Of a DNA stretch of 42,545 nt, positions 12,357-42,395 are shown in pieces. A program made the translations under genes and the position numbers. Positions within the stretch are counted from its first letter, which is position 1. Each line of letters begins with the position of its first letter. Source of the DNA: an uncultured Erysipelotrichaceae bacterium (GTDB lineage Bacteria; Bacillota_I; Bacilli_A; RF39; UBA660); assembly GCA_902797275.1 (NCBI GenBank), contig CADBSI010000024.1, positions 1 to 42,545 of the forward strand, in the 5' to 3' direction. The notes beneath the pieces are model-generated. The model was given only the letters and a program-made list of their open reading frames with translations, did not search any database and was not told the DNA's origin.

Positions 12357-14645
12357 ATGTTTCAAAAATTTGATGAAGATACAAAAAAAGTATTAAAGAT
12401 GGCTAAATATGAAATGCAAAAATTAAAACATTCGTTTGTAGGATCAGAACATTTATTATTAAGTATATTAAGTAATAAGGATTTAGATTTAACTATAAGA
12501 CTTAATAGTTATAATATTAACTATGAGAATTTTAAAGAAACACTTATAAATTTAATAGGTGTGGGTAATAGTTTGAATTCTTATTTTATTTATACACCTC
12601 TTTTAAAAAGAATAATTGAAAATGCTATTTTAGATTCTAAAGAAGATAATAGGTTTGAAGTTAATTTAAATGATTTATTTTTATCTTTTTTAGATGAAGG
12701 AGAAGGAGTAGGTATAAGAGTATTAACTAGTTTAGGTATTAATATAGATGATTTATATCTAGATTTTATAAATATTAAACCGTGTAAAGGTAAAAGTAAA
12801 AAGAAATTATCTTTATATGAATGGGGTTATGATTTAGTTCAAAAAGCTTTAGAAAATAAAATTGATCCAGTAATAGGAAGAGATCAAGAAATAAATCGTT
12901 TAATAGAAATTTTATTAAGAAGAACTAAGAATAATCCTTTATTATTGGGAGAAGCAGGTGTTGGTAAAACGGCAATAGTAGAAGGACTTGCTTTAAAAAT
13001 AAGTAATAAAAGTGTTCCACCTCAATTATTAAATAAAAAAATAATTTCTTTATCTCTAGCAAGTTTAGTAGCCGGTACTAAATACCGAGGTGAATTTGAA
13101 GATAAAGTTAATAAAATAATTTCAGAACTTGAAGAAAATCCTGATTTAATTCTTTTTATAGATGAAATCCATTCTTTAGTAGGAGCAGGGGGTGCTGAAG
13201 GAGCAATAGATGCTGCTAATATTTTTAAACCAGCCTTAGCAAGAGGTAAATTAAAATTAATAGGTGCAACTACTCTAGCTGAATATAAAGATACTATAGA
13301 AAAAGATAAAGCCCTTGCAAGACGTTTTCAAACAGTTTTAATAAAAGAACCAAGTCTAGAAGAAACAAAAATAATTTTAAAAAAATTAAAACCAATATAT
13401 GAAAACTATCATCAAGTAATAATTAAAAATGATATAATTGATAATATAGTTAAATTAACAAATAAATATATTTATAACCGAAAAAACCCTGATAAATCAA
13501 TAGATATTCTAGATGAAGTATGTATTTATAGATCTCTTACTAAAGATAAAAAAATGCAAAAGAAAGAAAATATTTTAAAAGAATTAGATTTAACTTTAAA
13601 AGAAAAAAATAATTATTTATTAAAACATGATTTTAAAGAAGCATCTAAATGTAAAAATCAAGAATTAATATTAGAAGATAAATTAAATGAATTACAAATT
13701 AAAGAAAATGATTTAATCAAAAAAGAAGTAAGTATAAATGATGTTTTAATTGTTATTAATAAAAAAACTAATATTCCTATTTATTCTTTTAATACTAAAA
13801 ATATTTCTAAATTACAAAAGTTAGAAAAAGATTTAAATAAAGTAATAATAGGTCAAGAAGAAGCTATTAAAGTAATAGTAAAAGAAACTAAATTGTTAAA
13901 ATTTGGTTTAAAATCAAATGAAAAACCTGTATCTTATCTTTTTACAGGTTCTTCAGGAATAGGTAAAACGGAACTTGTTAAAGAATATGCAAGATTATTA
14001 AATATGCCTTTAATAAGAATAGACGGAAGTGAATATAAAGAAAATCATTCTATAAGTAAAATATTAGGTTCTCCTCCTGGATATGTCGGGTATGATAATC
14101 ACATATCTTTAATAGATGATATTAAGACTAATCCTTTTTCGATAATACTAGTAGATGAAATAGAAAAATCTTGTAATTCTTTTTTAAATTTGTTCTTACA
14201 ATTATTAGATGAAGGATTTATAACAACATCAACAGGTGAAAAAGTATATTTTAATAATTCTATTATTATATTTACTAGTAATATAACTACTAATACCTCT
14301 ATGATAGGATTTAATCAAGATAAAGAAAAAGTAATCAAAGATAAATTAACTAATATACTAAGTATAGAACTATTAAATAGAATTAATCATGTAATTCAAT
14401 TTAATAAATTAACTGAAGATAATATAAGATGTATTATAAAAAATAAAATAATGAATATAAAAAATAAATTTAAAGACTATAATATAGTAATAAATATAAG
14501 TAATAATTTTATAGACAATATTATTAAATTATCTAATTATAAAGAATATGGTGCTAGAAAAATAAATAAATTATTAGAAGAAAAAATAGATGATATAGTA
14601 ATAGATAGTATTTTAAATAATGAAAAGAAAGTTAGAATAAGTTAA
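12357..14645 (+). CDS. clpC: ATP-dependent Clp protease ATP-binding subunit ClpC
   Basis: Clp_N repeats. D1 Walker [16 protein letters not shown] and Walker B LFIDEIH. Degenerate UVR-like linker. D2 [10 protein letters not shown] and ILVDEIEK. ClpP-docking MIGF loop. Start moved to the ATG at 12357, because the GGAGG RBS lies inside the track ORF start at 12345. Confidence 0.85.
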
Positions 14646-14663
14646 AGTATATAAATAGCTAAC

Positions 14664-14692
14664 TTTACAATTTATTAATAAAGTGCTATAAT
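14664..14692 (+). promoter_or_regulatory. Candidate sigma-A promoter with extended -10
   Basis: TTTACA (14664-14669), 17-nt spacer, TGcTATAAT (TATAAT 14687-14692). Confidence 0.4.
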
Positions 14693-14715
14693 ATATAGCC
14701 AAAAGGGGGGCTATT

Positions 14716-15507
14716 ATGAATGATTATTTAATAGATTTATATTTAAAATATTATGATACTAGAGAAAAATATGAAAGGATATATAAACGTTCTTTTAATG
14801 AGTTATTAAAAGAAATAGAAACGGAGTTATCTGTTTTATCATTAAAAGAGTTATTTGATGCTTATATAAAATATTCCAGAGTAAATTATTTAAAGAATTC
14901 TTATTTAAATAGTTTATTAAATTTAATATATGAAGATATTCAATTGAAGATAAATGATAATAATCCAATTGAAATAATAGATATGCATGCTGATTTATTT
15001 AGTTCAATGTTATCACTTGAAGATAATATTCAATCTTATAAAAATATTATACGTGTTAGAACTTATAATTTAGCTGATCCGTTCTTTATTTCTAATAAAA
15101 TTGAAAAAACTAATCAAGAACAAGCAGTTTTTATTCAAGAATATAAAGATGAAATAGAAACATTTAATCAAACTTTAAAAATTTCTCAAAGTTCTTTTAA
15201 TTATTTAGATAAACTACATAACTTATTAATGGAATGTCTTGATAATAAAATAGTATCTTTGTCAACAGAAGAAAGAAATAATCTTATACGTGATATAAAT
15301 AAAAGAATTGAATTATATTTTTCTCGTATAAATTATCAAAAGAACTTGTTAAATAATAAAACAGCTTTAGAATTAGAAATACGTTTAAAAGGTTTAAATA
15401 GTTATGATATAGCAGAAAATTTTAATTTTTCTAAATTAAAAAATAAATTAGAAGTATATGAAGATTATCAAAATAGATTATTAGAACAAAGGAACAAAAG
15501 CAAATAA
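14716..15507 (+). CDS. Hypothetical helical protein; possible C-terminal HTH
   Basis: 263 aa. AAGGGGGG RBS. The C-terminal LKGLNSYDIAENFNFSKLKNKLEVY loosely resembles a sigma-70 region-4 type HTH. No other motif recognised. Confidence 0.5.
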   Translation: MNDYLIDLYLKYYDTREKYERIYKRSFNELLKEIETELSVLSLKELFDAYIKYSRVNYLKNSYLNSLLNLIYEDIQLKINDNNPIEIIDMHADLFSSMLSLEDNIQSYKNIIRVRTYNLADPFFISNKIEKTNQEQAVFIQEYKDEIETFNQTLKISQSSFNYLDKLHNLLMECLDNKIVSLSTEERNNLIRDINKRIELYFSRINYQKNLLNNKTALELEIRLKGLNSYDIAENFNFSKLKNKLEVYEDYQNRLLEQRNKSK

Positions 15508-15514
15508 ATTTACT

Positions 15515-15545
15515 AACATCACCTCATGGTGATGTTATTTTTAAA
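15515..15545 (+). terminator. Intrinsic terminator
   Basis: AACATCACC (15515-15523), loop TCAT, GGTGATGTT (15528-15536), then ATTTTT. Confidence 0.7.
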
Positions 15546-15624
15546 TTAAAAGTAGTTTTATTTCTGTATTTTAATTATATTTTTTTTGTATATTTTCTTA
15601 TTATATAAAAAAAACTGAAAGAAT

Positions 15625-15999
15625 TCAGATTTTTTCATTATTTAAAATAATTGTATATATAGTTAAACCAATTAATAGAATTGATATCATTATATAATTA
15701 TTATTATAATATGTTTGATTATTAATAATATCTAAAGTTGTATTAGTATTAGTTATTTTATATAGCATAAATGTATAAAAGTAAATACCTATGTTTAATA
15801 TATTATAAGATAAACTATTTTTATAAATATCTTTTTTAGATAAAATTGCAATTATAATAAATATAGAATAAATAATATTTATAATAAAATATATAATAGA
15901 TAAAATACTAGTTTTATATAATTTATTAATTAGTAGAAACGTGATAAATAAATAAATTGTAAAAAGAATTATTGATAAATAATATACTATTTTTTTCAT
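15625..15999 (-). CDS. Small polytopic membrane protein (about 4 TM), unknown function
   Basis: 124 aa, very hydrophobic. Its ATG overlaps the TGA stop of the upstream AAA+ gene (ATGA at 15996-15999). Confidence 0.55.
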   Translation of the reverse strand: MKKIVYYLSIILFTIYLFITFLLINKLYKTSILSIIYFIINIIYSIFIIIAILSKKDIYKNSLSYNILNIGIYFYTFMLYKITNTNTTLDIINNQTYYNNNYIMISILLIGLTIYTIILNNEKI

Positions 16000-30837: not shown

Positions 30838-32661
30838 ATGAAAGAAAGCAATATGTTAAGATTAAAAATAATATTAAAAAGCAGTGATTACAATAACTGT
30901 CGTATGCATTTAAATCTTGATGATAATGCTTTCTTTTTATTACTTATTAATATAATAGAAGATGCAGTTATTAACTATAATCCTATAAATAACTATGAAT
31001 ATTTAACTAAAGCTAGTTCTTATTTAAAAATATCTTATGAACAACTTAGTAAAAATAAAAAAAGTCATTATCACTCTTTAATAGCAAAACTTAAAAAATT
31101 ATATAAAAAAGCCATAGGAATGGTTGATTTATATGATCAAGAATACTTTCGTAATACTAGTATTAATTTAGAAGATATTTTAAGTAGAAAAAAAGAAAAA
31201 ATAATTAATAATGTAAATGATAATTATTTATATAAATTAGTCTATGAAACAATATTTAATTTTAAAAATTTAGAATACTTAGATATTTTAATTGAAAAAG
31301 ATCCTAGTATTGTAAATGTTAGCAAAGAAACACCTATTTTTTTAGATATAATTGATACTTATTTAAAATGTTTAAAAGATAAAGATAAGAAAAACTCTTC
31401 TTATTATTTGAGAGTAATTAACAAATTTCTTGATACAAATACATTTGAACTTGATAATCAAATAAGGGAAGATATTCTAGAAACTTTAAATGATTTTATT
31501 AATTATAAAAATGGTTTAACTAAAACTGATTTAGAAGATCTTAAAAATATAATTAGTAAATTAAAAAAGCAATATGTTTTAAATAATTATAATATTAATT
31601 TAGATGAATATGAAATGAATAAAAGTGAAATGGATATTTTAGAACACTTTGAAGATATGCTTGAGAATAGAATTTATTTAAATGATTATATTATAACTAT
31701 AGATGATATAGATTCAACTGTATTAGATGATGGAATATCAATTGAAAGACTTAAAAATGGAAATATCATGTTTAAAGTTCATATAACTGATCCTTTAGGA
31801 ATGTATAGTTATAATTCAAGTATTATAACTGATGCTAAGTTAAGAACAACAACTATCTATAATATAAATCCACCTAGTCAAATGCTACCAAGTATTTTAT
31901 CAAGTAATAAGTTATCGCTTTTAAAAAATAAAAAAAGACTTGCTAAAAGTTTTTGCTTTGAATTTAGTAAAGAACATGGAATAGTTGATTTTAAAGTTTT
32001 AAATACAGTTATAAATGTAAGTAAAAGACATACGTATACAGAAATAAATGATTTATATAAAAAAGGTGGAACAACTAAAGAAGAAACAGAAATGTTAGGT
32101 TTATATGATGAAGTTTTAAAATATTTGAAAAAATTATTTAAAAATGCTAAAATTTATGAAGAATTAAAAAGAGAAAGTATTATTGGTAATAAACAAGGAA
32201 CATCTTCTTTTTCAGAAAGTTTAATTAGTTATTTAATGATGTTTACAGGTTTTAAAACAGCTGAAATGTTTCATGATTTAGGTTATCCATATGCTTATAG
32301 ATGTCATAAAATAGATGAGAAATGGCTAATTATTTTAGATGAATATATAAAAAATCCCAAAGATATAAATCAAAAGAAAATGTTAATGGATATAAAATCT
32401 AGATTTCCTAAAGCTTTCTATACTAGATTTAATCAAGGACATAAAGGTTTAGACGTATCTTACTATTCTCATATTACCAGTCCTTTAAGAAGATTTTGTG
32501 ATATTTTAAATTTATTATGTTTAGATACTTGTTATTTTAAAAAGCCAACTGATAGACAAATTTATCAATTAGAAAAAGAAATAGATACTACTTGTGATTA
32601 TATAAATATGCAAAGTAATTCAATAGATGAGTATTTAAGTAAAATAAAAGTAAAAAAATAA
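30838..32661 (+). CDS. RNB-domain (RNase II/R family) protein with a novel N-terminal region; no CSD or S1 seen
   Basis: 607 aa. RNB motif I-like TIDDIDSTVLDDGISIE and motif IV SHITSPLRRFCDILN in the C-terminal 320 aa. The first ~280 aa are helical and unassignable. The start is 4 nt after the dnaI stop, with a GAAGGAG RBS. Confidence 0.6.
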   Translation: MKESNMLRLKIILKSSDYNNCRMHLNLDDNAFFLLLINIIEDAVINYNPINNYEYLTKASSYLKISYEQLSKNKKSHYHSLIAKLKKLYKKAIGMVDLYDQEYFRNTSINLEDILSRKKEKIINNVNDNYLYKLVYETIFNFKNLEYLDILIEKDPSIVNVSKETPIFLDIIDTYLKCLKDKDKKNSSYYLRVINKFLDTNTFELDNQIREDILETLNDFINYKNGLTKTDLEDLKNIISKLKKQYVLNNYNINLDEYEMNKSEMDILEHFEDMLENRIYLNDYIITIDDIDSTVLDDGISIERLKNGNIMFKVHITDPLGMYSYNSSIITDAKLRTTTIYNINPPSQMLPSILSSNKLSLLKNKKRLAKSFCFEFSKEHGIVDFKVLNTVINVSKRHTYTEINDLYKKGGTTKEETEMLGLYDEVLKYLKKLFKNAKIYEELKRESIIGNKQGTSSFSESLISYLMMFTGFKTAEMFHDLGYPYAYRCHKIDEKWLIILDEYIKNPKDINQKKMLMDIKSRFPKAFYTRFNQGHKGLDVSYYSHITSPLRRFCDILNLLCLDTCYFKKPTDRQIYQLEKEIDTTCDYINMQSNSIDEYLSKIKVKK

Positions 32662-32734: not shown

Positions 32735-33424
32735 ATGAAAGAAAATAATTTAAAAGTTTTAGTTGTTATTTTAACAATATTAGTACTTTGTTTAGGAGGT
32801 TTTATTATTTACGATAAAGTATTAAAAGATAATAATATAGAAAATAAAGATAATGATAATAAGACTGATAATGATAATGACAAAGTTGTAGTAGATGATA
32901 GTAAAATAGAAATACATAATAGTATTGATTATGATAATTGTAATCTTGATTTAACTAATTCTGTTAATCGTTTTGTTTGCTATAATGAGAAATTATTTTA
33001 TAATGAGTATGCAAATGGTATAAATGCTAAAGATTTCTTAACTACTTATTTAACTTATTTTTCTTCTAAAAGTGATACTTTAATTCATGAAGAACAAATA
33101 AATGATATTAATTGGAAAAGAAGTATTAGTAAAAGTGCAAGTAAACAGTTAATTAATAAATACTTTGGCACTTTAGAAATACCTAAGTTAGACACAAGTA
33201 ATGAAGAATTTGTTTTACAAGAAGATAATGATAACTATTATATAATAGGAAGAAGTATTGGAATGGATAACAAGATTTTAACATTTAAAGCATCTGAAAA
33301 AATAGGTGATTATGAATATAAACTTATCTTTAATATAACAGATGGTTATTCTAATAATTTTGGTACTAGAACTATGAAAATTAAATTAAATGGTAATTAC
33401 TATCAAATAAAAGAAATTAGCTAA
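32735..33424 (+). CDS. Membrane-anchored hypothetical protein
   Basis: 229 aa. N-terminal signal-anchor VLVVILTILVLCLGGFIIY followed by a D/N/K-rich linker. AAGGAG RBS. Its last four codons lie inside the left direct repeat. Confidence 0.55.
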   Translation: MKENNLKVLVVILTILVLCLGGFIIYDKVLKDNNIENKDNDNKTDNDNDKVVVDDSKIEIHNSIDYDNCNLDLTNSVNRFVCYNEKLFYNEYANGINAKDFLTTYLTYFSSKSDTLIHEEQINDINWKRSISKSASKQLINKYFGTLEIPKLDTSNEEFVLQEDNDNYYIIGRSIGMDNKILTFKASEKIGDYEYKLIFNITDGYSNNFGTRTMKIKLNGNYYQIKEIS

Positions 33425-33440
33425 GGCTAATTTTTTTGTA
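33406..33440. repeat. Left copy of the 32-nt direct repeat (also the intrinsic terminator of the 229-aa gene)
   Basis: AATAAAAGAAATTAGCTAAGGCTAATTTTTTT (33406-33437) is identical to 36926-36957. GTA follows in both copies, after one extra T on the right. Hairpin AAATTAGC-TAAG-GCTAATTT plus T7. Confidence 0.9.
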
Positions 33441-33488
33441 AAATAAAAGTAAATAATATAATAATAAAAATGTTTATTCATAAATATA

Positions 33489-33497
33489 TGATACAAT
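33489..33497 (+). promoter_or_regulatory. Extended -10 element (TGaTACAAT) in front of the cassette
   Basis: TG at 33489-33490 and TACAAT at 33492-33497. No good -35 element. About 30 nt upstream of the ATG at 33527. Confidence 0.3.
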
Positions 33498-33526
33498 GTA
33501 TATGAGAATAGGAGTTGTATAAAAAT

Positions 33527-34813
33527 ATGAATATACAAAGAATAGAAAACGTTTTAAGTCAAATAGAAGTAAATAGAAATTATAAAGATTTTACTAATTT
33601 ATTATCATTAGAAGAAAGAAAACAACTCATTTATTATATTGAAACAGATCCAACCCTTGTTTCTGAGGTTATTAATAAATTTAAGGATGATAATTTTATT
33701 ACAAATTATTTTACGGAAGAAGAAGCAGCTAATATATATAACAATGAATTTAATGAATTAAGTGAACTATCAAAAAATATAGTAATATGTAATTTGAGTT
33801 TAATTTTAGCAAAAGAGGCACTAAAAAAATATACACCAGACGTAGAAATTATTAGGCTTATTTTGAAAAAATTATCTTCCGATTCTGAAAAAATGGAATT
33901 TATTAAACCTTATCTATCTAATTTATCTGATTATGATAAATTTAGAATATATGCACGTAGTTTAGATGAAATAGATTCTAAATTATTATGCATGAAAACA
34001 TATCCTGAGTGTTATACTAGTTTTCCACTTCTTTGTAGAAATGTAAAAACTGATGAGGAGATAAAAAAAATCATTGATTTTTATCAAAAAAATTTTCAGA
34101 ATTATCACTTTGAATATGAATCACAATTTGAAGAAATTCTAGCAAGTATGTTTTCAAGCTTTAGTAATGATAACTTGAAATTACAATATTTTGATAGTAT
34201 TTTAGGTGAATCTAATAAAGCAAAAATAATTCAAAGTTTGAAAGACGATAACTTAAAATTACAATATTTAGATATTTTTTTACTTGAATTAACTAAGGTA
34301 AGAATAATTCAAAGTTTAAAAGACGATAATCTAAAATTACAATATTTAACTAAATTCTATGAAGATAATTATAAAGCGCAAATAATTTTAACCATAAATG
34401 ATTTAAAAATCAAAGTTAAGGCTTTAACATTTTTAGATAATATTACTAGTTATTGTATTCATGCTGATTGGCTTGATGATGTTGAAAATATAAATGATGA
34501 CATAAACAGGGAAATAATTAGAAAAATAGCTGAAGAAAATGCTTTAAATTATGATAACCTTTTCCAACTTTTTTTGAAATTCGGTTATGGTATTAGAACT
34601 TTAGGAAACAATTTAATAAAAATTGTTAATTTATCTCCAGATGAATTTAAAAAAATAATTCAAATACTAGATATTAAAGAATCTTCAAAGTTAACAATGA
34701 ATGATGTTAATAATTTTATTCCTACATTTTATGAAAGAGAATTTAGAATTAATAATCGTGAGGAACTTTTAATTTTTTCTAGATTACAAAACTTAATTTT
34801 GAATAAAGATTGA
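33527..34813 (+). CDS. N-terminal part of a large uncharacterised repeat protein (ends at an in-frame TGA)
   Basis: The track ORF starts at TTG 33515, but AGGAG (33510-33514) abuts it, so the ATG at 33527 is more plausible. Helical sequence with three 26-aa tandem repeats. Same reading frame as 34913-36721. Confidence 0.6.
   Translation: MNIQRIENVLSQIEVNRNYKDFTNLLSLEERKQLIYYIETDPTLVSEVINKFKDDNFITNYFTEEEAANIYNNEFNELSELSKNIVICNLSLILAKEALKKYTPDVEIIRLILKKLSSDSEKMEFIKPYLSNLSDYDKFRIYARSLDEIDSKLLCMKTYPECYTSFPLLCRNVKTDEEIKKIIDFYQKNFQNYHFEYESQFEEILASMFSSFSNDNLKLQYFDSILGESNKAKIIQSLKDDNLKLQYLDIFLLELTKVRIIQSLKDDNLKLQYLTKFYEDNYKAQIILTINDLKIKVKALTFLDNITSYCIHADWLDDVENINDDINREIIRKIAEENALNYDNLFQLFLKFGYGIRTLGNNLIKIVNLSPDEFKKIIQILDIKESSKLTMNDVNNFIPTFYEREFRINNREELLIFSRLQNLILNKD
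34166..34399 (+). repeat. Three tandem 78-bp (26-codon) in-frame coding repeats
   Basis: GATAAC/T-TTG/TTA/CTA-AAATTACAATATTT recurs at 34169, 34247 and 34325 (period 78). Segments 34225-34270 and 34303-34348 match 43/46 nt. Peptide core (I)IQSLKDDNLKLQYL. Confidence 0.85.
34811..34813 (+). other. Single in-frame TGA separating two co-framed ORFs
   Basis: 33515 and 34913 are both in frame 2 (mod 3). The 33 codons from 34814 to 34912 contain no stop and read EGIINILSKINKIVDINDILEKNNINSDTFIDN. Confidence 0.9.
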
Positions 34814-34912
34814 GAAGGAATAATAAATATTTTATCTAAAATTAATAAAATTGTTGACATAAATGATATATTAGAAAAAAATAATATTAATTCAGATACA
34901 TTTATTGATAAT

Positions 34913-36721
34913 TTGTTAGAAAATGAAAATAATGAATTTTTACTTAATGTTTTGCATGAAATAACTAATAAATATTTAAATAAAATACGAAATTTATATG
35001 TGGCAGAAAGAAAAGAAAATGCAGAAAATGAGTTGAATTTAGATTATGATTATGATAAGAACTATTTAATATCTAAATTTTTTCAAAAATATGATATTCA
35101 ATATATTTATAATTTTATTAATAGTGAAATAGATAAAAGTAAATTATTGGATGATGGGCAAAGAAAATTATTGAATAATGAATCTTTACTTATAGAATGT
35201 CTTAAATTTATGAAAGATAAAGAACATTACCCAATGGATGAATTTTCTAAAATTAAAAGTAAGCTTAGATCATTAAATGGTATCTTAAATATATTATATG
35301 AAGAGAAAAAACTTGACTTTTTAGGTAATAAAAAAGATGAAAAAGCTAAAATTATTTTAAAACCGAAAGAAGTTGTATCTAAAGATTTCTTTATTAAAAT
35401 ATTAAATGAATTAGATATTGATTTATTGAGAGATAAACTTTTATCAAATCCTGAATTATATGAAAAAATGCTTAATATCTTAAAAAAATATAAGTTTATG
35501 AATTGGTCTGATACTTTTGAAAATTTATTAAAAGCTGCTGATTTATCATTTAATGAAAGAGATATTGCTATATTAATTAATTATTTTTATAGTTTTTATT
35601 CAAAGTTAGAAGCAAAACAACAAAATGGATTAATAGAAAGTATAAGATTATCAAATATTCTTGATGAATTGAGAACTTATGGTAGTTCCTCAATAAAATA
35701 TGATTATTTATTAGGAAAAGAAGATTCAGACCTTATTATTTCTAATCCAGGTCCTAATTCAGCTAGCTTAAAGGCGGAGGAAAGATTAAAAAAAGTGCCT
35801 GAGGAAATATTAATTCAATTTAAGAGAAAATATATTACAGTTCCTCCGATGGATTTGGATGTATCATTAGAAAATGGTAAAAAGATACATGTAGATATTG
35901 GTGATATAACAAGTACAATTAATTTAACATATGGTGAAAGAACAGGTGCGTGTATGCGAATTGGTGGTGCAGGTAGTAGTTTGTTTGATTTTTGTTTAGA
36001 AAATGAAAATGGTTTTCATATTAGATTAACTAATCCTATTACTGGTAATTTTATAAGTAGAGTAAGTGGTTTTAGAAATGGTAATACTGTGTTTTTAAAT
36101 CAACTTAGATATAGTTTAGATAAAGATATATCTAATTCTGATTTAATAGGTGTAATTAGTGTAGTAGCAAGAAAAATTGTTGAATTAACTAAAGAAAGTG
36201 AATATCCTATTAAAAATGTTGTTATATCTGATGGTTATGTAATGAGTGCACGACATAATGATAGAACTACATTAAATGTTAATGATGTAAAGAAAGGATA
36301 TAGTCATTTTTATTCAGATGTAAGTAGTAGTAATGCAATTTATTTAGAAAAAAATGATGAAATAGAAGTAGGACCTGAAAAAGCAGGAAAATATGATGTT
36401 TTAAGAAAAAGAATAATATGCTATGAAAATATAAATGAAATAACTGAACAAATTCAAAAATTTAATCTTATAAATGGTTTATTAAAGGGTAAATCATTAG
36501 GTGATATATCTATAATAGATGAAAAATTTATTATTAATATTAGTAAATTATATATGGGTGAAGACTTTTTAATAGCATTTGACTTTGATGGTAATATTCT
36601 TTGGAAATTTATTTTAGAAAGAGAAGATCATTTTAAGAAAAAAGCCAACGAAGAAATTAATGTATTAATTAATTATTTAAATGAAAAAGATTTAGTTAAT
36701 AAAGGAGGAAAAGCTAGATGA
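34913..36721 (+). CDS. C-terminal part of the same large uncharacterised protein (open from 34814); no family recognised
   Basis: 602 aa from a TTG that has no Shine-Dalgarno sequence. The open frame continues upstream to the TGA at 34811. It ends in a TGA that overlaps the next ATG. The least low-complexity segment is around GERTGACMRIGGAGSS...GFHIRL. Confidence 0.6.
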   Translation: MLENENNEFLLNVLHEITNKYLNKIRNLYVAERKENAENELNLDYDYDKNYLISKFFQKYDIQYIYNFINSEIDKSKLLDDGQRKLLNNESLLIECLKFMKDKEHYPMDEFSKIKSKLRSLNGILNILYEEKKLDFLGNKKDEKAKIILKPKEVVSKDFFIKILNELDIDLLRDKLLSNPELYEKMLNILKKYKFMNWSDTFENLLKAADLSFNERDIAILINYFYSFYSKLEAKQQNGLIESIRLSNILDELRTYGSSSIKYDYLLGKEDSDLIISNPGPNSASLKAEERLKKVPEEILIQFKRKYITVPPMDLDVSLENGKKIHVDIGDITSTINLTYGERTGACMRIGGAGSSLFDFCLENENGFHIRLTNPITGNFISRVSGFRNGNTVFLNQLRYSLDKDISNSDLIGVISVVARKIVELTKESEYPIKNVVISDGYVMSARHNDRTTLNVNDVKKGYSHFYSDVSSSNAIYLEKNDEIEVGPEKAGKYDVLRKRIICYENINEITEQIQKFNLINGLLKGKSLGDISIIDEKFIINISKLYMGEDFLIAFDFDGNILWKFILEREDHFKKKANEEINVLINYLNEKDLVNKGGKAR

Positions 36722-36927
36722 AAAAAGAAGGAACAGTAAAAAAATATGATGGTTATACAGGTATCATTAATGATTATTTAGGAAAAGAGTACTTATTATT
36801 AAAAAAAGAAACATTAGAAAAAATAAATGAAAAAGATATTGTTATATTTGATCCAGAAGTTGTTATTACATCAGAAGAAGATAGAAATGTTGCTAGGTTT
36901 GTAAAGAAAAAAGTTTTAAAACCATAA
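36718..36927 (+). CDS. Small cold-shock-domain-like (OB-fold-like) protein
   Basis: 69 aa. AAGGAGG RBS 8 nt upstream. ATGA overlap with the preceding ORF. GTVKKYDGYTGIINDYLGKEYLLLKK ... IVIFDP ... ARFV follows the spacing of the CspA pattern GTVKWFN..KGFGFI...G.DVFVH...V.F. Confidence 0.45.
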   Translation: MKKEGTVKKYDGYTGIINDYLGKEYLLLKKETLEKINEKDIVIFDPEVVITSEEDRNVARFVKKKVLKP

Positions 36928-36961
36928 TAAAAGAAATTAGCTAAGGCTAATTTTTTTTGTA
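36926..36961. repeat. Right copy of the direct repeat (terminator of the cassette)
   Basis: Identical 32 nt (36926-36957), then one extra T, then GTA. It starts inside the TAA stop of the 69-aa ORF and ends 40 nt before the spoVAC ATG. Confidence 0.9.
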
Positions 36962-37001
36962 TATTTTTCTAATTTTTACTAATAATATAATTGGTGAAAA
37001 T

Positions 37002-37442
37002 ATGGAAAAAAAGTTATATGATAAATTAGTTTTAGAACATGCTCCTAAAGAGAAAAGGTTAGAAAATGCTGTTATTGCTTTTTTAATAGGAGGAGTTATG
37101 GGGGTAATAGGGGAGTTATTAGTTGAATTTTATGGTTATTATTTACACATATCAAGAAGCGATGCTTCAGTTTTTATGATTATAACTTTAATATTTTTAG
37201 CAAGTTTATTTACAGCTCTTGGTTTCTTTGATAAATGGGTTAAGTTTGCTAAGTGTGGCTTGATAATTCCAATTACCGGGTTTGCTCATTCTATGACTAG
37301 TGCTGCTATTGAATATAAAAGAGAAGGTTTTGTAACTGGACTTGGTGCTAATATGTTTAAACTTGCTGGAACAGTTATTTTATATGGAGTAGTATCAGCT
37401 TATATTTTTGGTCTTATAAGACTTATAATAGGAGGTATCTAA
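37002..37442 (+). CDS. spoVAC: Stage V sporulation protein AC
   Basis: About 146 aa from the ATG at 37002 (GGTGA RBS; the track TTG at 36957 lies in the terminator repeat). Polytopic. FLIGGVMGVIGE and ITGFAHSM blocks are typical of SpoVAC. Confidence 0.8.
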   Translation: MEKKLYDKLVLEHAPKEKRLENAVIAFLIGGVMGVIGELLVEFYGYYLHISRSDASVFMIITLIFLASLFTALGFFDKWVKFAKCGLIIPITGFAHSMTSAAIEYKREGFVTGLGANMFKLAGTVILYGVVSAYIFGLIRLIIGGI

Positions 37443-38806: not shown

Positions 38807-39014
38807 AATCAATTATTTCTAAGTTTTCAATTAGGATATCACTATAAGTAAAAGATTTAATTTTATTATCATCTGTTTTAATAGTAAATATAAAATTATA
38901 CATATCTTCAATACTACCATTAAATTCTTCTATTTGATTTCTAGCTCCATTAAATTTAAAATGTAAATTCTTACCTTTCTTACTTTCTAAATTATCTTTA
39001 ATTTTACTAATCAT
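38805..39014 (-). CDS. veg: Veg-family protein
   Basis: 69 aa. The IK..L....GK.L.FK.NG.RN...E..G.I...Y...F.I ... SF.YSDIL.E pattern follows Bacillus Veg. Position after yabG as in Bacillus. Confidence 0.65.
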   Translation of the reverse strand: MISKIKDNLESKKGKNLHFKFNGARNQIEEFNGSIEDMYNFIFTIKTDDNKIKSFTYSDILIENLEIID

Positions 39015-39784
39015 CTTGGATACCCCACATACATTGTTCCATTAGTAATAATTCCTCCAATTCCTTTAGAACCATATTTAGTTTTTTCTAATATATTAAT
39101 TAAATCAATTGGTTTAGATTTATCACTTAAAGCAACACTTGAAGCTATAATAGCAGGATCTAAGGCATGTATATTTATTCTTTTAGGACTAGAAGCAAAA
39201 TTAGCTCCTGCTTTAATTAATTCTTCATAATTAGATTGACAAGCTCCTGCAATTATTATTAATCTATTGTGATCATAATATTTTCTAGCTTCTTTAACTC
39301 CTTTAATAAAATTACTAGTATTTTTATAATTATCATTATTAGATTCATTACCAAGTTTTTTATAATAAGCATCATGACCGGTAATAACTAATATATCCGG
39401 ATTATATTCATCTAGTAATTTTTTTATATGATTACTAATATCTTCTTCTCTAGCTTTAAAACCAATTGCTTTTACATGAACTTGTTTATAAAAATCCATA
39501 CATCTTTCTAAATAATCTTCATCACCATCAATATGCAAAACTTTACCAGGTAAATAAAAATATTCATTTCGATCTAATTTAATATCAAATCTATCTAAGA
39601 AAATATCATCATCTTTTATCTTTTCTTTAGTATCAACTTTTCTTAAATCTGAAAGATCACTATCAGCAAATAATCTTATATTTATTCCTTTTAAAGTAGC
39701 AATATTATTATCAATATCAATTATTTTAAAGATAGTATCATTATTATATGAATTTCTAGTTACTAAATCACCTACATTAAACAT
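39011..39784 (-). CDS. yabG: Sporulation-specific protease YabG (peptidase U57)
   Basis: 257 aa. ILVITGHDAY and IIAGACQSNYE blocks. rsmA-yabG-veg order as in Bacillus. Confidence 0.7.
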   Translation of the reverse strand: MFNVGDLVTRNSYNNDTIFKIIDIDNNIATLKGINIRLFADSDLSDLRKVDTKEKIKDDDIFLDRFDIKLDRNEYFYLPGKVLHIDGDEDYLERCMDFYKQVHVKAIGFKAREEDISNHIKKLLDEYNPDILVITGHDAYYKKLGNESNNDNYKNTSNFIKGVKEARKYYDHNRLIIIAGACQSNYEELIKAGANFASSPKRINIHALDPAIIASSVALSDKSKPIDLINILEKTKYGSKGIGGIITNGTMYVGYPR

Positions 39785-40659: not shown

Positions 40660-41502
40660 TTAAAGATGTCTATTTTCTTTAATGTTTTTACCATAACCTA
40701 AAACATTTCTTTTTCCATCAAATATAGTTGCATTAGGAAATAACACTTTAATAGTATCAAGTTCTTGATATAATTTAGAATCATCTCCAAGGCAAATTCC
40801 ATTTATTAACATAGGAGGAATTCCTCCTGGAATAGCTGACCAAAAATAAGTTCTACTAAATTTATCATGAAAATCACTTGAAGAAGACATTGGTAAAATT
40901 AAGTTTTCATATATATCAATTATTTCTTTAGGATATAAGGCAGTAATTTTTTCTTTTTTAGTTTTTCTAATTCTTTGATATTCAAAGAAATCTAGTTTTA
41001 ATAATTCATTCATGTAATAGTTTCTTTTATCAAAAAATAACCATATATGTGTATCACTTGTTATATACATTAAATATTTATAATAAGCATCACGGTTATT
41101 AGTCATTTTATTTTCTTCTAAACTATTAAAACGATTCAAAAAAGTACAAAAACAAGCTTCTTTTTCTTTTTCTAATTGGCCAAACCATTCACTTGCTACA
41201 AGACCAGCCATACTTATACTTTTTAAAACTTTCATGTTAGCTGGTAAAATATGAAAATAACTATTTTCATCAAAAATTACTTTATCTTCGTTTTCTAACA
41301 TTTTAAAATAGTTATCATTTTTTTCTAAGTTTGAATATATTTCAAAATAAATTCTTTCAAGTTCTATAAGAGCTTTTTTTCTATTAGATGTATAATCAAA
41401 ATGATTAATAAAACTATCTAAATAGCAATTAGCAATTAATTCTAAATTCATTCCTTGTAAATTAATAGGATTTATACTTCTTTTTATGTCATTTATGTTC
41501 AT
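40660..41502 (-). CDS. Hypothetical protein
   Basis: 280 aa. GGTGAT RBS. Only 31 nt upstream of rsmA, so probably co-transcribed. No recognisable motif. Confidence 0.5.
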   Translation of the reverse strand: MNINDIKRSINPINLQGMNLELIANCYLDSFINHFDYTSNRKKALIELERIYFEIYSNLEKNDNYFKMLENEDKVIFDENSYFHILPANMKVLKSISMAGLVASEWFGQLEKEKEACFCTFLNRFNSLEENKMTNNRDAYYKYLMYITSDTHIWLFFDKRNYYMNELLKLDFFEYQRIRKTKKEKITALYPKEIIDIYENLILPMSSSSDFHDKFSRTYFWSAIPGGIPPMLINGICLGDDSKLYQELDTIKVLFPNATIFDGKRNVLGYGKNIKENRHL

Positions 41503-41591
41503 AGTATCACCAAACTAGTTTGTATTATAACATTTTTATTTTTTTTTAACAAGACTATTCTTTTTTTTAAAATTAATAGTATAATATAAGT

Positions 41592-42395
41592 ATGAAAAAA
41601 GAAATTATATATTTAATTATTTTAGTTATATTTATTTCACTTTTTGGTTTGTTAGTTTTAAAAAAACAAGTAAAAAAGGAAAATACTAACCCTTATCAAG
41701 AATTTAATTTTTATAAAGAAAGTAATTTAGAAAGATATAAAAAATATTATTTAAATAATAATTATTCTTATAAGGATGTTGTTTTAAGAGTTAATATGAA
41801 TCTTGATAATAGTTTTTATACTAATACCAAGGAAATTAATAATTTTGATTTATTAATGCTAGTTAATAAGTATAATTATGTTAATAATAATTTTAAACCA
41901 ACTGATTTAGTTAAAGTTTCAAAATTTGCTGTTAATAATATGTATTTAAATAAAACATGTATGGAAGCTTTTATTAATTTAGCTAGTAATGCTTTAAAAG
42001 AAGGGTATAATATTCGAGCTATTTCAACTTATAGAACTTATGATTATCAAAATAATTTATATAATAATTATGCTAAAAAAGATGGAGTAGATAAAGCTGA
42101 TACATATTCGGCTCGCCCTGGCTTTTCCGAGCATCATACGGGTCTTGCTATTGATGTTGATAATATAAAAACAAATTTCAATAATTTTGAAAATACAAAT
42201 GAATTCAAATGGATGCAAGAAAATGCTTATAAATATGGTTTTATTTTAAGGTATCCAAGTGATAAAGTAGATATAACTGGTTATATGTATGAACCATGGC
42301 ATTATCGTTATGTTGGAAGAGAAATTGCTAAAATAATCAAAGAGAAAAACTTAACTTTTGAAGAATACTATTATGAATACTTAGACAAAGGATAG
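41592..42395 (+). CDS. M15B (VanY-type) D-alanyl-D-alanine carboxypeptidase, membrane anchored
   Basis: 267 aa. N-terminal TM. STYRTYDYQ, PGFSEHHTGLAIDV and EPWHYRYVG motifs. Confidence 0.8.
   Translation: MKKEIIYLIILVIFISLFGLLVLKKQVKKENTNPYQEFNFYKESNLERYKKYYLNNNYSYKDVVLRVNMNLDNSFYTNTKEINNFDLLMLVNKYNYVNNNFKPTDLVKVSKFAVNNMYLNKTCMEAFINLASNALKEGYNIRAISTYRTYDYQNNLYNNYAKKDGVDKADTYSARPGFSEHHTGLAIDVDNIKTNFNNFENTNEFKWMQENAYKYGFILRYPSDKVDITGYMYEPWHYRYVGREIAKIIKEKNLTFEEYYYEYLDKG

Follow-up and report, generated by a model that had tools for sequence, protein, structure and literature searches.

Analysis of the 42,545-nt contig CADBSI010000024.1 (the window hereafter denotes this whole stretch), which belongs to an Erysipelotrichaceae-type metagenome-assembled genome (MAG), revealed a cassette of two genes between the gene of a 229-aa membrane-anchored protein and the spoVA operon, bracketed by two perfect 32-nt direct repeats. 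On balance we favour, with modest confidence, the explanation that the repeats are an old terminator duplication at a chromosomal slot of variable content, with a two-gene operon as its cargo, and not the fresh scar of an attachment (att) site. Genes may be enclosed by a perfect direct repeat without this being the scar of an insertion. The repeat is an ordinary type of feature in an unusual, well-conserved arrangement and is a modest finding; of more use is the gene pair, which forms an undescribed family of proteins with known folds.

The twin hairpins and the slot upstream of spoVA

The two 32-mers (33406-33437 and 36926-36957) were identical and lay on the same strand. At up to three mismatches, just these two matches were found in the 42.5-kb window, and none appeared in 100 shuffles, which bore out the statement of an earlier interpretation made from the letters of the window (hereafter the sequence-only reading) that the repeat is not due to chance. 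The identity extended through GTA once an additional T of the right copy was allowed for. In the left copy, the codons AAA GAA ATT AGC TAA (33410-33424) encoded the K-E-I-S-stop end of the 229-aa gene, and the right copy started inside the TAA (36925-36927) of the 69-aa open reading frame (ORF) at the end of the cassette. The identity of the copies, its extension through GTA, the gene end in the left copy and the start of the right copy had been given by the sequence-only reading and were found as described, as was the resemblance of the right copy to a duplicated 3' end of the 229-aa gene together with its terminator.

Both copies folded into an A-tract/T-tract hairpin of 12-15 bp with a TAAG loop and 7-8 T residues behind it. 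The folding energies were -11.3 and -14.5 kcal/mol (z ~ -4), and none of 200 shuffles was as stable. The stem contained only two G-C pairs, in a genome with a GC content of ~22%, and was not G+C-rich as expected of an intrinsic terminator; because of these two pairs, neither hairpin was called by a consensus scan that requires at least three. Of the features of an intrinsic terminator, the stable hairpin and the T-run immediately behind it were present and the G+C-rich stem was absent. The A-tract, the hairpin with a 4-nt loop and the run of 7-8 T at stop codons resembled intrinsic bidirectional (Rho-independent) terminators. Unlike these, the stem was AT-rich, near-identical copies 3.5 kb apart were kept in three lineages, and the right copy of one of these lineages (locus L095) followed no gene on its own strand.

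The comparison of related loci showed that the content of the slot differed. The order of an RNase II/R-family (RNB) gene, the 229-aa gene, the large gene, the small gene and spoVAC-D-EB was shared by the window, by L014 of the same species and by L010 and L018 of a second lineage with ~75% protein identity, and both hairpins were present in L010 and L014. In L095, from a third lineage, the pair was absent at the site; two hairpins lay between a 228-aa gene and spoVAC and enclosed a NUDIX gene of opposite orientation; the homology of L095 to the window ended at 33477 and restarted at 36926. The NUDIX gene between the two copies means that DNA was inserted or replaced at the junction of the 229-aa gene and spoVAC, and to this extent the sequence-only reading, which had proposed an insertion there, was supported. 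According to the identities of the flanks, L010 and L095 were sisters and the window lineage lay outside; since they are sisters, the pair was probably already at the site in the common ancestor and was later replaced in L095.

The distribution of the repeat pointed to the locus and not to its cargo. Among 61 loci of the gene pair with complete flanks, a flanking direct repeat was limited to three, with 32 nt in the window, 30 nt in L010 and 27 nt in L014, and the remaining 58 loci had at most 15 nt, which equalled the maximum of 600 mismatched control pairs. Because these 58 loci carry the pair without a flanking repeat, and because the same copies enclose the pair in two lineages and a NUDIX gene in one, the repeat is assigned to the locus. 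The presence of both copies in three species-level lineages indicates that the duplication is old. The left copy, which is also coding, was invariant in all same-species contigs examined; the right copy was polymorphic in the species, with five variants that included the length of the T-run. Both copies contained AGC in the window lineage and AGT in the L010 lineage, a fixed C/T difference, and the two copies of L095 differed from each other at two positions.

In the favoured explanation, the slot would be a fixed site on the chromosome, with the gene of a lineage-specific membrane protein on one side, the spoVA operon on the other and the twin terminator-like hairpins as its boundaries. The left hairpin would end the transcript of the 229-aa gene, overlapping its stop codon, and the right hairpin would end the cassette transcript and shield the spoVA promoter from read-through. 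The spoVA operon is forespore-specific in Bacillus. The copies would be kept near-identical by constraint on the hairpin and probably by occasional gene conversion, which is proposed because C is found in both copies of one lineage and T in both copies of the other. The cargo would be an operon of two genes, transcribed from an extended -10 promoter within the cassette, in which the 69-aa protein is translationally coupled to a large, cytoplasmic protein.

Coordinates of the slot, the hairpins and the cassette in the window
Feature	Position	Strand	Basis or remark
229-aa membrane-anchored protein gene	32735..33424	+	N-terminal hydrophobic anchor; last four codons and stop in the left hairpin
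Left 32-nt copy	33406..33437	+	Arms 33410-33421/33426-33437, loop TAAG, T-run after
Extended -10 TGATACAAT	33487..33495	+	Read from the sequence; candidate element of the large gene
Large-protein gene, 1,064 codons	33527..36721	+	Same-frame translation; nonsense-interrupted here
Three tandem 78-nt units	34141..34374	+	26-aa helical repeats, IIxSLKDDNLKLQYL; copy number allele-dependent
Nonsense TGA	34811..34813	+	AGA (Arg) or AAG (Lys) in relatives
GNAT-fold-like domain, residues 775-966	35849..36424	+	AlphaFold2 topology, Foldseek
Shine-Dalgarno GGAGG of the small gene	36704..36708	+	In the 3'-terminal codons of the large gene
69-aa cold-shock-domain-like (OB-fold) protein gene	36718..36927	+	ATG overlaps TGA of the large gene (ATGA)
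Right 32-nt copy	36926..36957	+	Arms 36927-36941/36946-36960; directly 5' of the conserved spoVA upstream region
spoVAC	37002..37442	+	Pfam PF03862, E = 5.9e-34; first of spoVAC-spoVAD-spoVAEB, right border of the slot

The gene pair, its alleles and its relatives

The cassette, which had been described as three ORFs, contained two genes, the first of which was split. The ORFs 33515-34813 and 34913-36721 shared one frame with a single TGA between them, and the homologues of the large protein were single chains of 1,000-1,100 aa. One of them (P0001) was intact at 1,064 aa and 97% identical to the window protein; the codon at the TGA site encoded Arg in P0001 and Lys in more distant relatives. 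The same TGA was found in three independent assemblies (L006-L008), and a sequencing error was rejected for this reason. An alternative genetic code with TGA as Trp or Gly was rejected as well, since six other genes of the window ended in TGA and Trp was encoded by TGG in every one of 40 cases. The truncated product of 428 aa was found on 4 contigs, and the intact 1,064-aa members of the same 90% cluster were many, on dozens of contigs. Since the gene is intact in most strains, the window copy is a minority nonsense allele of one gene, inactivated through an AGA-to-TGA change.

The extended -10 element that the sequence-only reading had assigned to the cassette was present as TGATACAAT and was conserved in L010 and L014, with a similar TGGTATAAT in L020; it would act as the promoter of the large gene. 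The number of 78-nt units was three in the window and higher in P0002 and P0003. The L010 allele (L010 8001-8500) was devoid of the first ~200 residues, which L096 of the same lineage retained. The C-terminal Gly-Gly of the large protein (window 36700-36721) was conserved in homologues, with a Gly also in the consensus of the C-terminus; since the GGAGG of the small gene lies in those codons, this conservation may reflect translational coupling, not protein function.

The 69-aa protein was predicted by AlphaFold2 as a five-stranded barrel (predicted local distance difference test, pLDDT, 92.9), and Foldseek matched it to CspA, CspB and the cold-shock domains (CSDs) of Unr with template modelling (TM) scores of 0.66-0.8 and a probability of 1.0. 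Tyr10 and Tyr25 were invariant and Tyr13 was replaced by Phe in one distant homologue; in our own alignment, these three residues took the aromatic, RNA-binding positions of RNP1/RNP2 of the Csp proteins. The Pfam CSD model did not match the small protein at E <= 1, and the RNP motifs were not conserved as such. The protein thus resembled cold-shock proteins in its barrel of ~70 aa and its aromatic positions, and differed from them in the missing Pfam match and in that its gene was always tied to the large gene and not free-standing.

The AlphaFold2 model of the large protein (pLDDT 88.5, predicted TM score 0.71) was all-helical over residues 1-770 and formed an alpha/beta domain over residues 775-966. 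The order of the secondary-structure elements of this domain, b1-a1-a2-b2-b3-b4-a3-b5-a4-b6-b7, fitted the GNAT fold. The best Foldseek matches in the PDB were the GNATs NatD, MsPat, PCAF/GCN5 and the toxin GmvT, with probabilities of 0.96-1.0 but modest E-values (0.02-0.2) and TM scores (0.42-0.5), and several matches in the BFVD were GNATs as well. Conservation was ~0.30 over the N-terminal repeats and reached 0.75, the peak of the protein, in the domain core; the core GERTGACMRIGG (35933-35968) and the motifs FH, SRVSGFRNGNT and NQLR were invariant in the family. Besides the modest scores, two negative results spoke against the GNAT assignment. No GNAT model of Pfam (Acetyltransf_*) matched the window protein or 35 family members, and the Q/RxxGxG/A motif A for binding of coenzyme A was absent, the consensus behind b4 being FLNQLRxSxDxxY without G-x-G/A. 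Sequence searches of the PDB with two family profiles returned noise only. The large protein resembles the GNATs in its predicted fold only. The N-terminal half resembled MgtE_N-type arrays in its stacked short helices and 26-aa repeat units, and differed from them in that MgtE_N-like matches in the repeats were weak and limited to 6 of 35 family members and that no link to Mg2+ transport was found.

GNAT toxins that acetylate tRNA include TacT, AtaT, ItaT, KacT and GmvT (PMC9177977, PMC6698736), and in type II toxin-antitoxin systems of the GNAT-RHH (ribbon-helix-helix) kind, a toxin of ~170 aa follows an upstream DUF1778/RHH antitoxin (PMC9177977). The window pair is similar to these toxins in the predicted order of strands and helices of the domain, with GmvT among its matches, and in being a coupled unit of two genes with a small partner. 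Unlike them, the domain ends a protein of ~1,064 aa and had neither a GNAT match in Pfam nor the Q/RxxGxG/A motif, and the partner is a downstream CSD-like barrel, not an upstream DUF1778/RHH protein.

A search with the C-terminal part of the large protein returned >200 proteins, all unnamed, and a scan of one genome per species gave 77 loci, whose MAG labels were nearly all Bacilli, Erysipelotrichaceae, Tenericutes and Ca. Coprovivens, with a few in other bins. In a set of 1.84 billion proteins, a profile of the C-terminal domain found 694 matching clusters (50% identity); among the matches listed, the domain was C-terminal in full-length proteins of 1,000-2,000 aa. The large gene and the 69-aa ORF co-occurred, with a homologue of the small ORF directly beside the large gene in ~55 of the 77 loci. 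The two genes overlapped by 4 nt in 20 loci and by 11 nt in 19; the small gene was immediately upstream of the large gene in ~7 loci (L030, L051, L061, L065, L066, L071 and L075), and in L073 (4606-8985) the CSD-like protein was fused to the C-terminus of the large one. Some MAGs contained 2-4 copies of the large gene, several of them with 3-4 on separate contigs. In L044, L083, L075 and L076, two or three large genes stood in tandem, with small genes between them in L083, and disrupted copies were common (the window, L026, L079 and L093).

Scans of the cassette with Pfam, NCBIfam, PADLOC, Rfam and tRNA models gave no match, in agreement with the sequence-only reading, which could place the ORFs in no family and saw no recombinase among them, and no description of the pair was found in the literature. 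No relatives of the C-terminal domain were found in phage and plasmid collections or in IMG/VR, and no conserved third gene was found near the pair. The sequence-only reading had considered the cassette an undescribed accessory module; this term is fair for the pair, which nevertheless forms a widespread family and no strain-specific insert, and whose window copy is inactivated. The family is sizeable and confined to uncultured low-GC gut Bacilli; it is unnamed, is covered by no Pfam model and has no relative of solved structure. Several copies occur in some small genomes, and the alleles, which are hypervariable, pass from one lineage to another. With the predicted folds, an atypical GNAT-like domain and a cold-shock-like partner, work on this family, which automated annotation leaves blank, has a concrete and testable place to begin.

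Exchange of large-gene alleles was seen in L021, the species-representative MAG of the window's species. From ~36600 rightwards, L021 was 98-100% identical to the window, and its large gene was 99-100% identical to the L018/L010 allele and ~83% identical to that of the window (L021 1-3100 compared with window 34167-37000). The crossover fell in a shared stretch of 21 nt near window 36610-36630. This mosaic indicates homologous allele exchange, by which alleles of the large gene appear to move between lineages through homologous recombination. The assemblies L006 and L007 both ended exactly at 36010, and L108, from the sample of L006, restarted near 36056; these breaks are probably due to co-existing alleles in the samples. 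An imperfect 26-nt repeat (34905-34930 and 35985-36010) was also noticed, the second copy of which ends at the break at 36010.

Function and origin of the cassette

For the function of the pair, the models suggest only a tentative scheme. The GNAT-like domain might move an acyl or aminoacyl group to a target that is linked or bound to RNA. Its OB-fold partner would bind single-stranded nucleic acid or gate the enzyme, and the repeat array would set specificity. A role of the conflict type is likewise a possibility to which we give well under even weight. It is favoured because of the paralogy, the hypervariability, the allele exchange and the frequent inactivation of the pair, and it is disfavoured because of the housekeeping neighbourhoods and the missing defence-island signal.

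Several points weigh against the favoured explanation or against the functions attached to it. No coherent defence-island signal was found among 132 neighbouring proteins, and the neighbours of the pair were mostly housekeeping genes (efp, rpmG, mur ligases and a D-Ala-D-Ala carboxypeptidase). No known homologue supports any activity of the pair. Termination at both hairpins is predicted from stems with two G-C pairs, gene conversion is deduced from a single site, and the search for further hairpin copies covered ~60 kb of the genomes of these lineages. L021 came from a merged metagenome assembly and may be chimeric, although a chimeric k=77 join is unlikely because the shared stretch measures only 21 nt.

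The neighbourhoods would be expected if the pair, instead of being a conflict system, were a vertically inherited enzyme of housekeeping function that modifies RNA or protein and has an RNA chaperone as its partner, a reading that we regard as plausible but not probable. The absence of a defence-island signal and of copies on mobile elements, and the RNase II/R-family genes near several loci, are consistent with it. The 2-4 paralogues and tandem arrays of some MAGs fit it poorly, as do the weakly conserved N-terminal half with its variable number of repeats, the swapping of alleles between lineages, the common disruption of copies and the sister lineage that is devoid of the pair at this site.

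An RNB gene and the large gene were at most a few genes apart in the window (30838-32661), in L010 and in four distant loci (L035 2586-3455, L039 2268-3137, L037 43-831 and L069 7925-8989). The RNB protein of the window had no CSD or S1 domain according to Pfam. These nearby genes may hint at an RNA-related role or at old synteny.

The pair could also be a new kind of conflict module of uncultured gut Bacilli in which a sensor of variable helical repeats is joined to an atypical GNAT-fold effector acting on RNA or aminoacyl-tRNA and gated by the CSD-like protein, with the hairpins as a recombinase-free exchange slot; we consider this composite improbable. About as improbable is the proposal that the twin hairpins are themselves the substrates of recombination, forming a docking site without a recombinase in which loop-out and Campbell-type re-entry swap the cargo and homogenise the copies. 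It would account for the different cargo between the same repeats in sister lineages and for copies that change in concert (C/C in one lineage, T/T in the other), and recombination was evident in the region. The borders, however, did not coincide with the hairpins: the left border of the cargo swap lay ~40 nt beyond the left hairpin, and the L021 crossover was within the large gene. Neither a single hairpin nor a circle junction was seen in the same-species contigs. Repeats of 30-32 nt are about as short as RecA-mediated recombination usually allows, or shorter.

The sequence-only reading had suggested that the repeat looks like an att or target duplication, or a recombination scar, as insertion of the cassette into a former junction of the 229-aa gene and spoVAC would leave it. 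As a recent event, such an accessory insertion is largely refuted, and we give it little credence. Its attraction lies in the perfect 32-nt direct repeats, the right copy that mimics the 3' end of the left gene, the promoter of the cassette and the sister lineage without the cassette at the site. Both copies nevertheless persist around a different gene in L095, the 58 other loci of the pair are without the repeat, the phage, plasmid and IMG/VR collections contain no copy of the pair, and no recombinase is encoded in the cassette or next to it. Among 10 places shown for the 18 same-species contigs on record, the cassette lay upstream of spoVAC wherever the contig reached that far, and no empty site with a single hairpin was found there or in either related lineage. 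The GC content of the cassette (0.216-0.227) and its GC at third codon positions (GC3, 0.09-0.12) were within the range of the other genes of the window, so that the comparison of composition with the flanks revealed no shift, and the divergence of the cassette between lineages equalled that of the flanks.

Genomic islands at the 3' ends of genes, such as SGI1-type islands at trmE or dusA, have attL and attR copies that rebuild the gene end (PMC8409611). The window repeat is like these in that it includes the last codons and stop of a flanking gene and that the content differs among relatives. It differs in that there was no integrase, empty site, composition shift or copy on mobile elements, and in that the repeats persist around unrelated cargo of 0.6-3.5 kb only.

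The least probable reading, that the 32-mer is one of a dispersed terminator-type or REP-like (repetitive extragenic palindromic) family and that the proximity of the copies is meaningless, can appeal to the generic form of a bidirectional terminator and to a search of part of the genome, but the two copies at up to three mismatches in 42.5 kb, their occurrence at these two sites only in the other fetched loci, the tie of the left copy to the coding end of one specific gene and the sole IMG/VR match, which we take as chance, make it highly improbable. That match, obtained with a loosened hairpin pattern, lay within a phage ORF and had no T-run. Scans of JGI metagenome contigs for the hairpin returned 0 matches, a result with no bearing on dispersal or on the empty site.

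Two further candidates were set aside. Outside the core, the left copy and the right copy resembled each other only weakly (~67% over 27 nt of AT-rich DNA in L095), and this homology was not used. The idea that the right copy might be what is left of a vanished paralogue of the 229-aa gene was rejected; the neighbouring 348-aa protein of L010 has the N-terminal anchor in common with the 229-aa protein, but not the C-terminus.

The 229-aa protein had no match in Pfam, NCBIfam or PADLOC. Its full-length homologues formed 4 clusters only, from three lineages only, and all of them ended in ...NYYQIKEIS. Its near-identical N-terminal anchor, MKxNNxKxLVVxLxxxxLxLGGFIIYDKVL, was shared by otherwise unrelated proteins (window 32735-32830, L010 6111-6215 and 7198-7300, P0149-P0151), which suggests a family of surface proteins with a shared leader. 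To the right of the operon, L010 carried an N6-methyltransferase gene and a 388-aa gene (13068-15756) after spoVAEB, where the window has veg and yabG; the two L010 genes are possibly a type I restriction-modification system. Two spots of low identity were also noted in the right part of the window. The first (39000-39400) was 69-80% identical to L014, near the end of the L014 contig, and the second (41200-41600) was 64% identical to L021 within DNA that was otherwise 94-100% identical.

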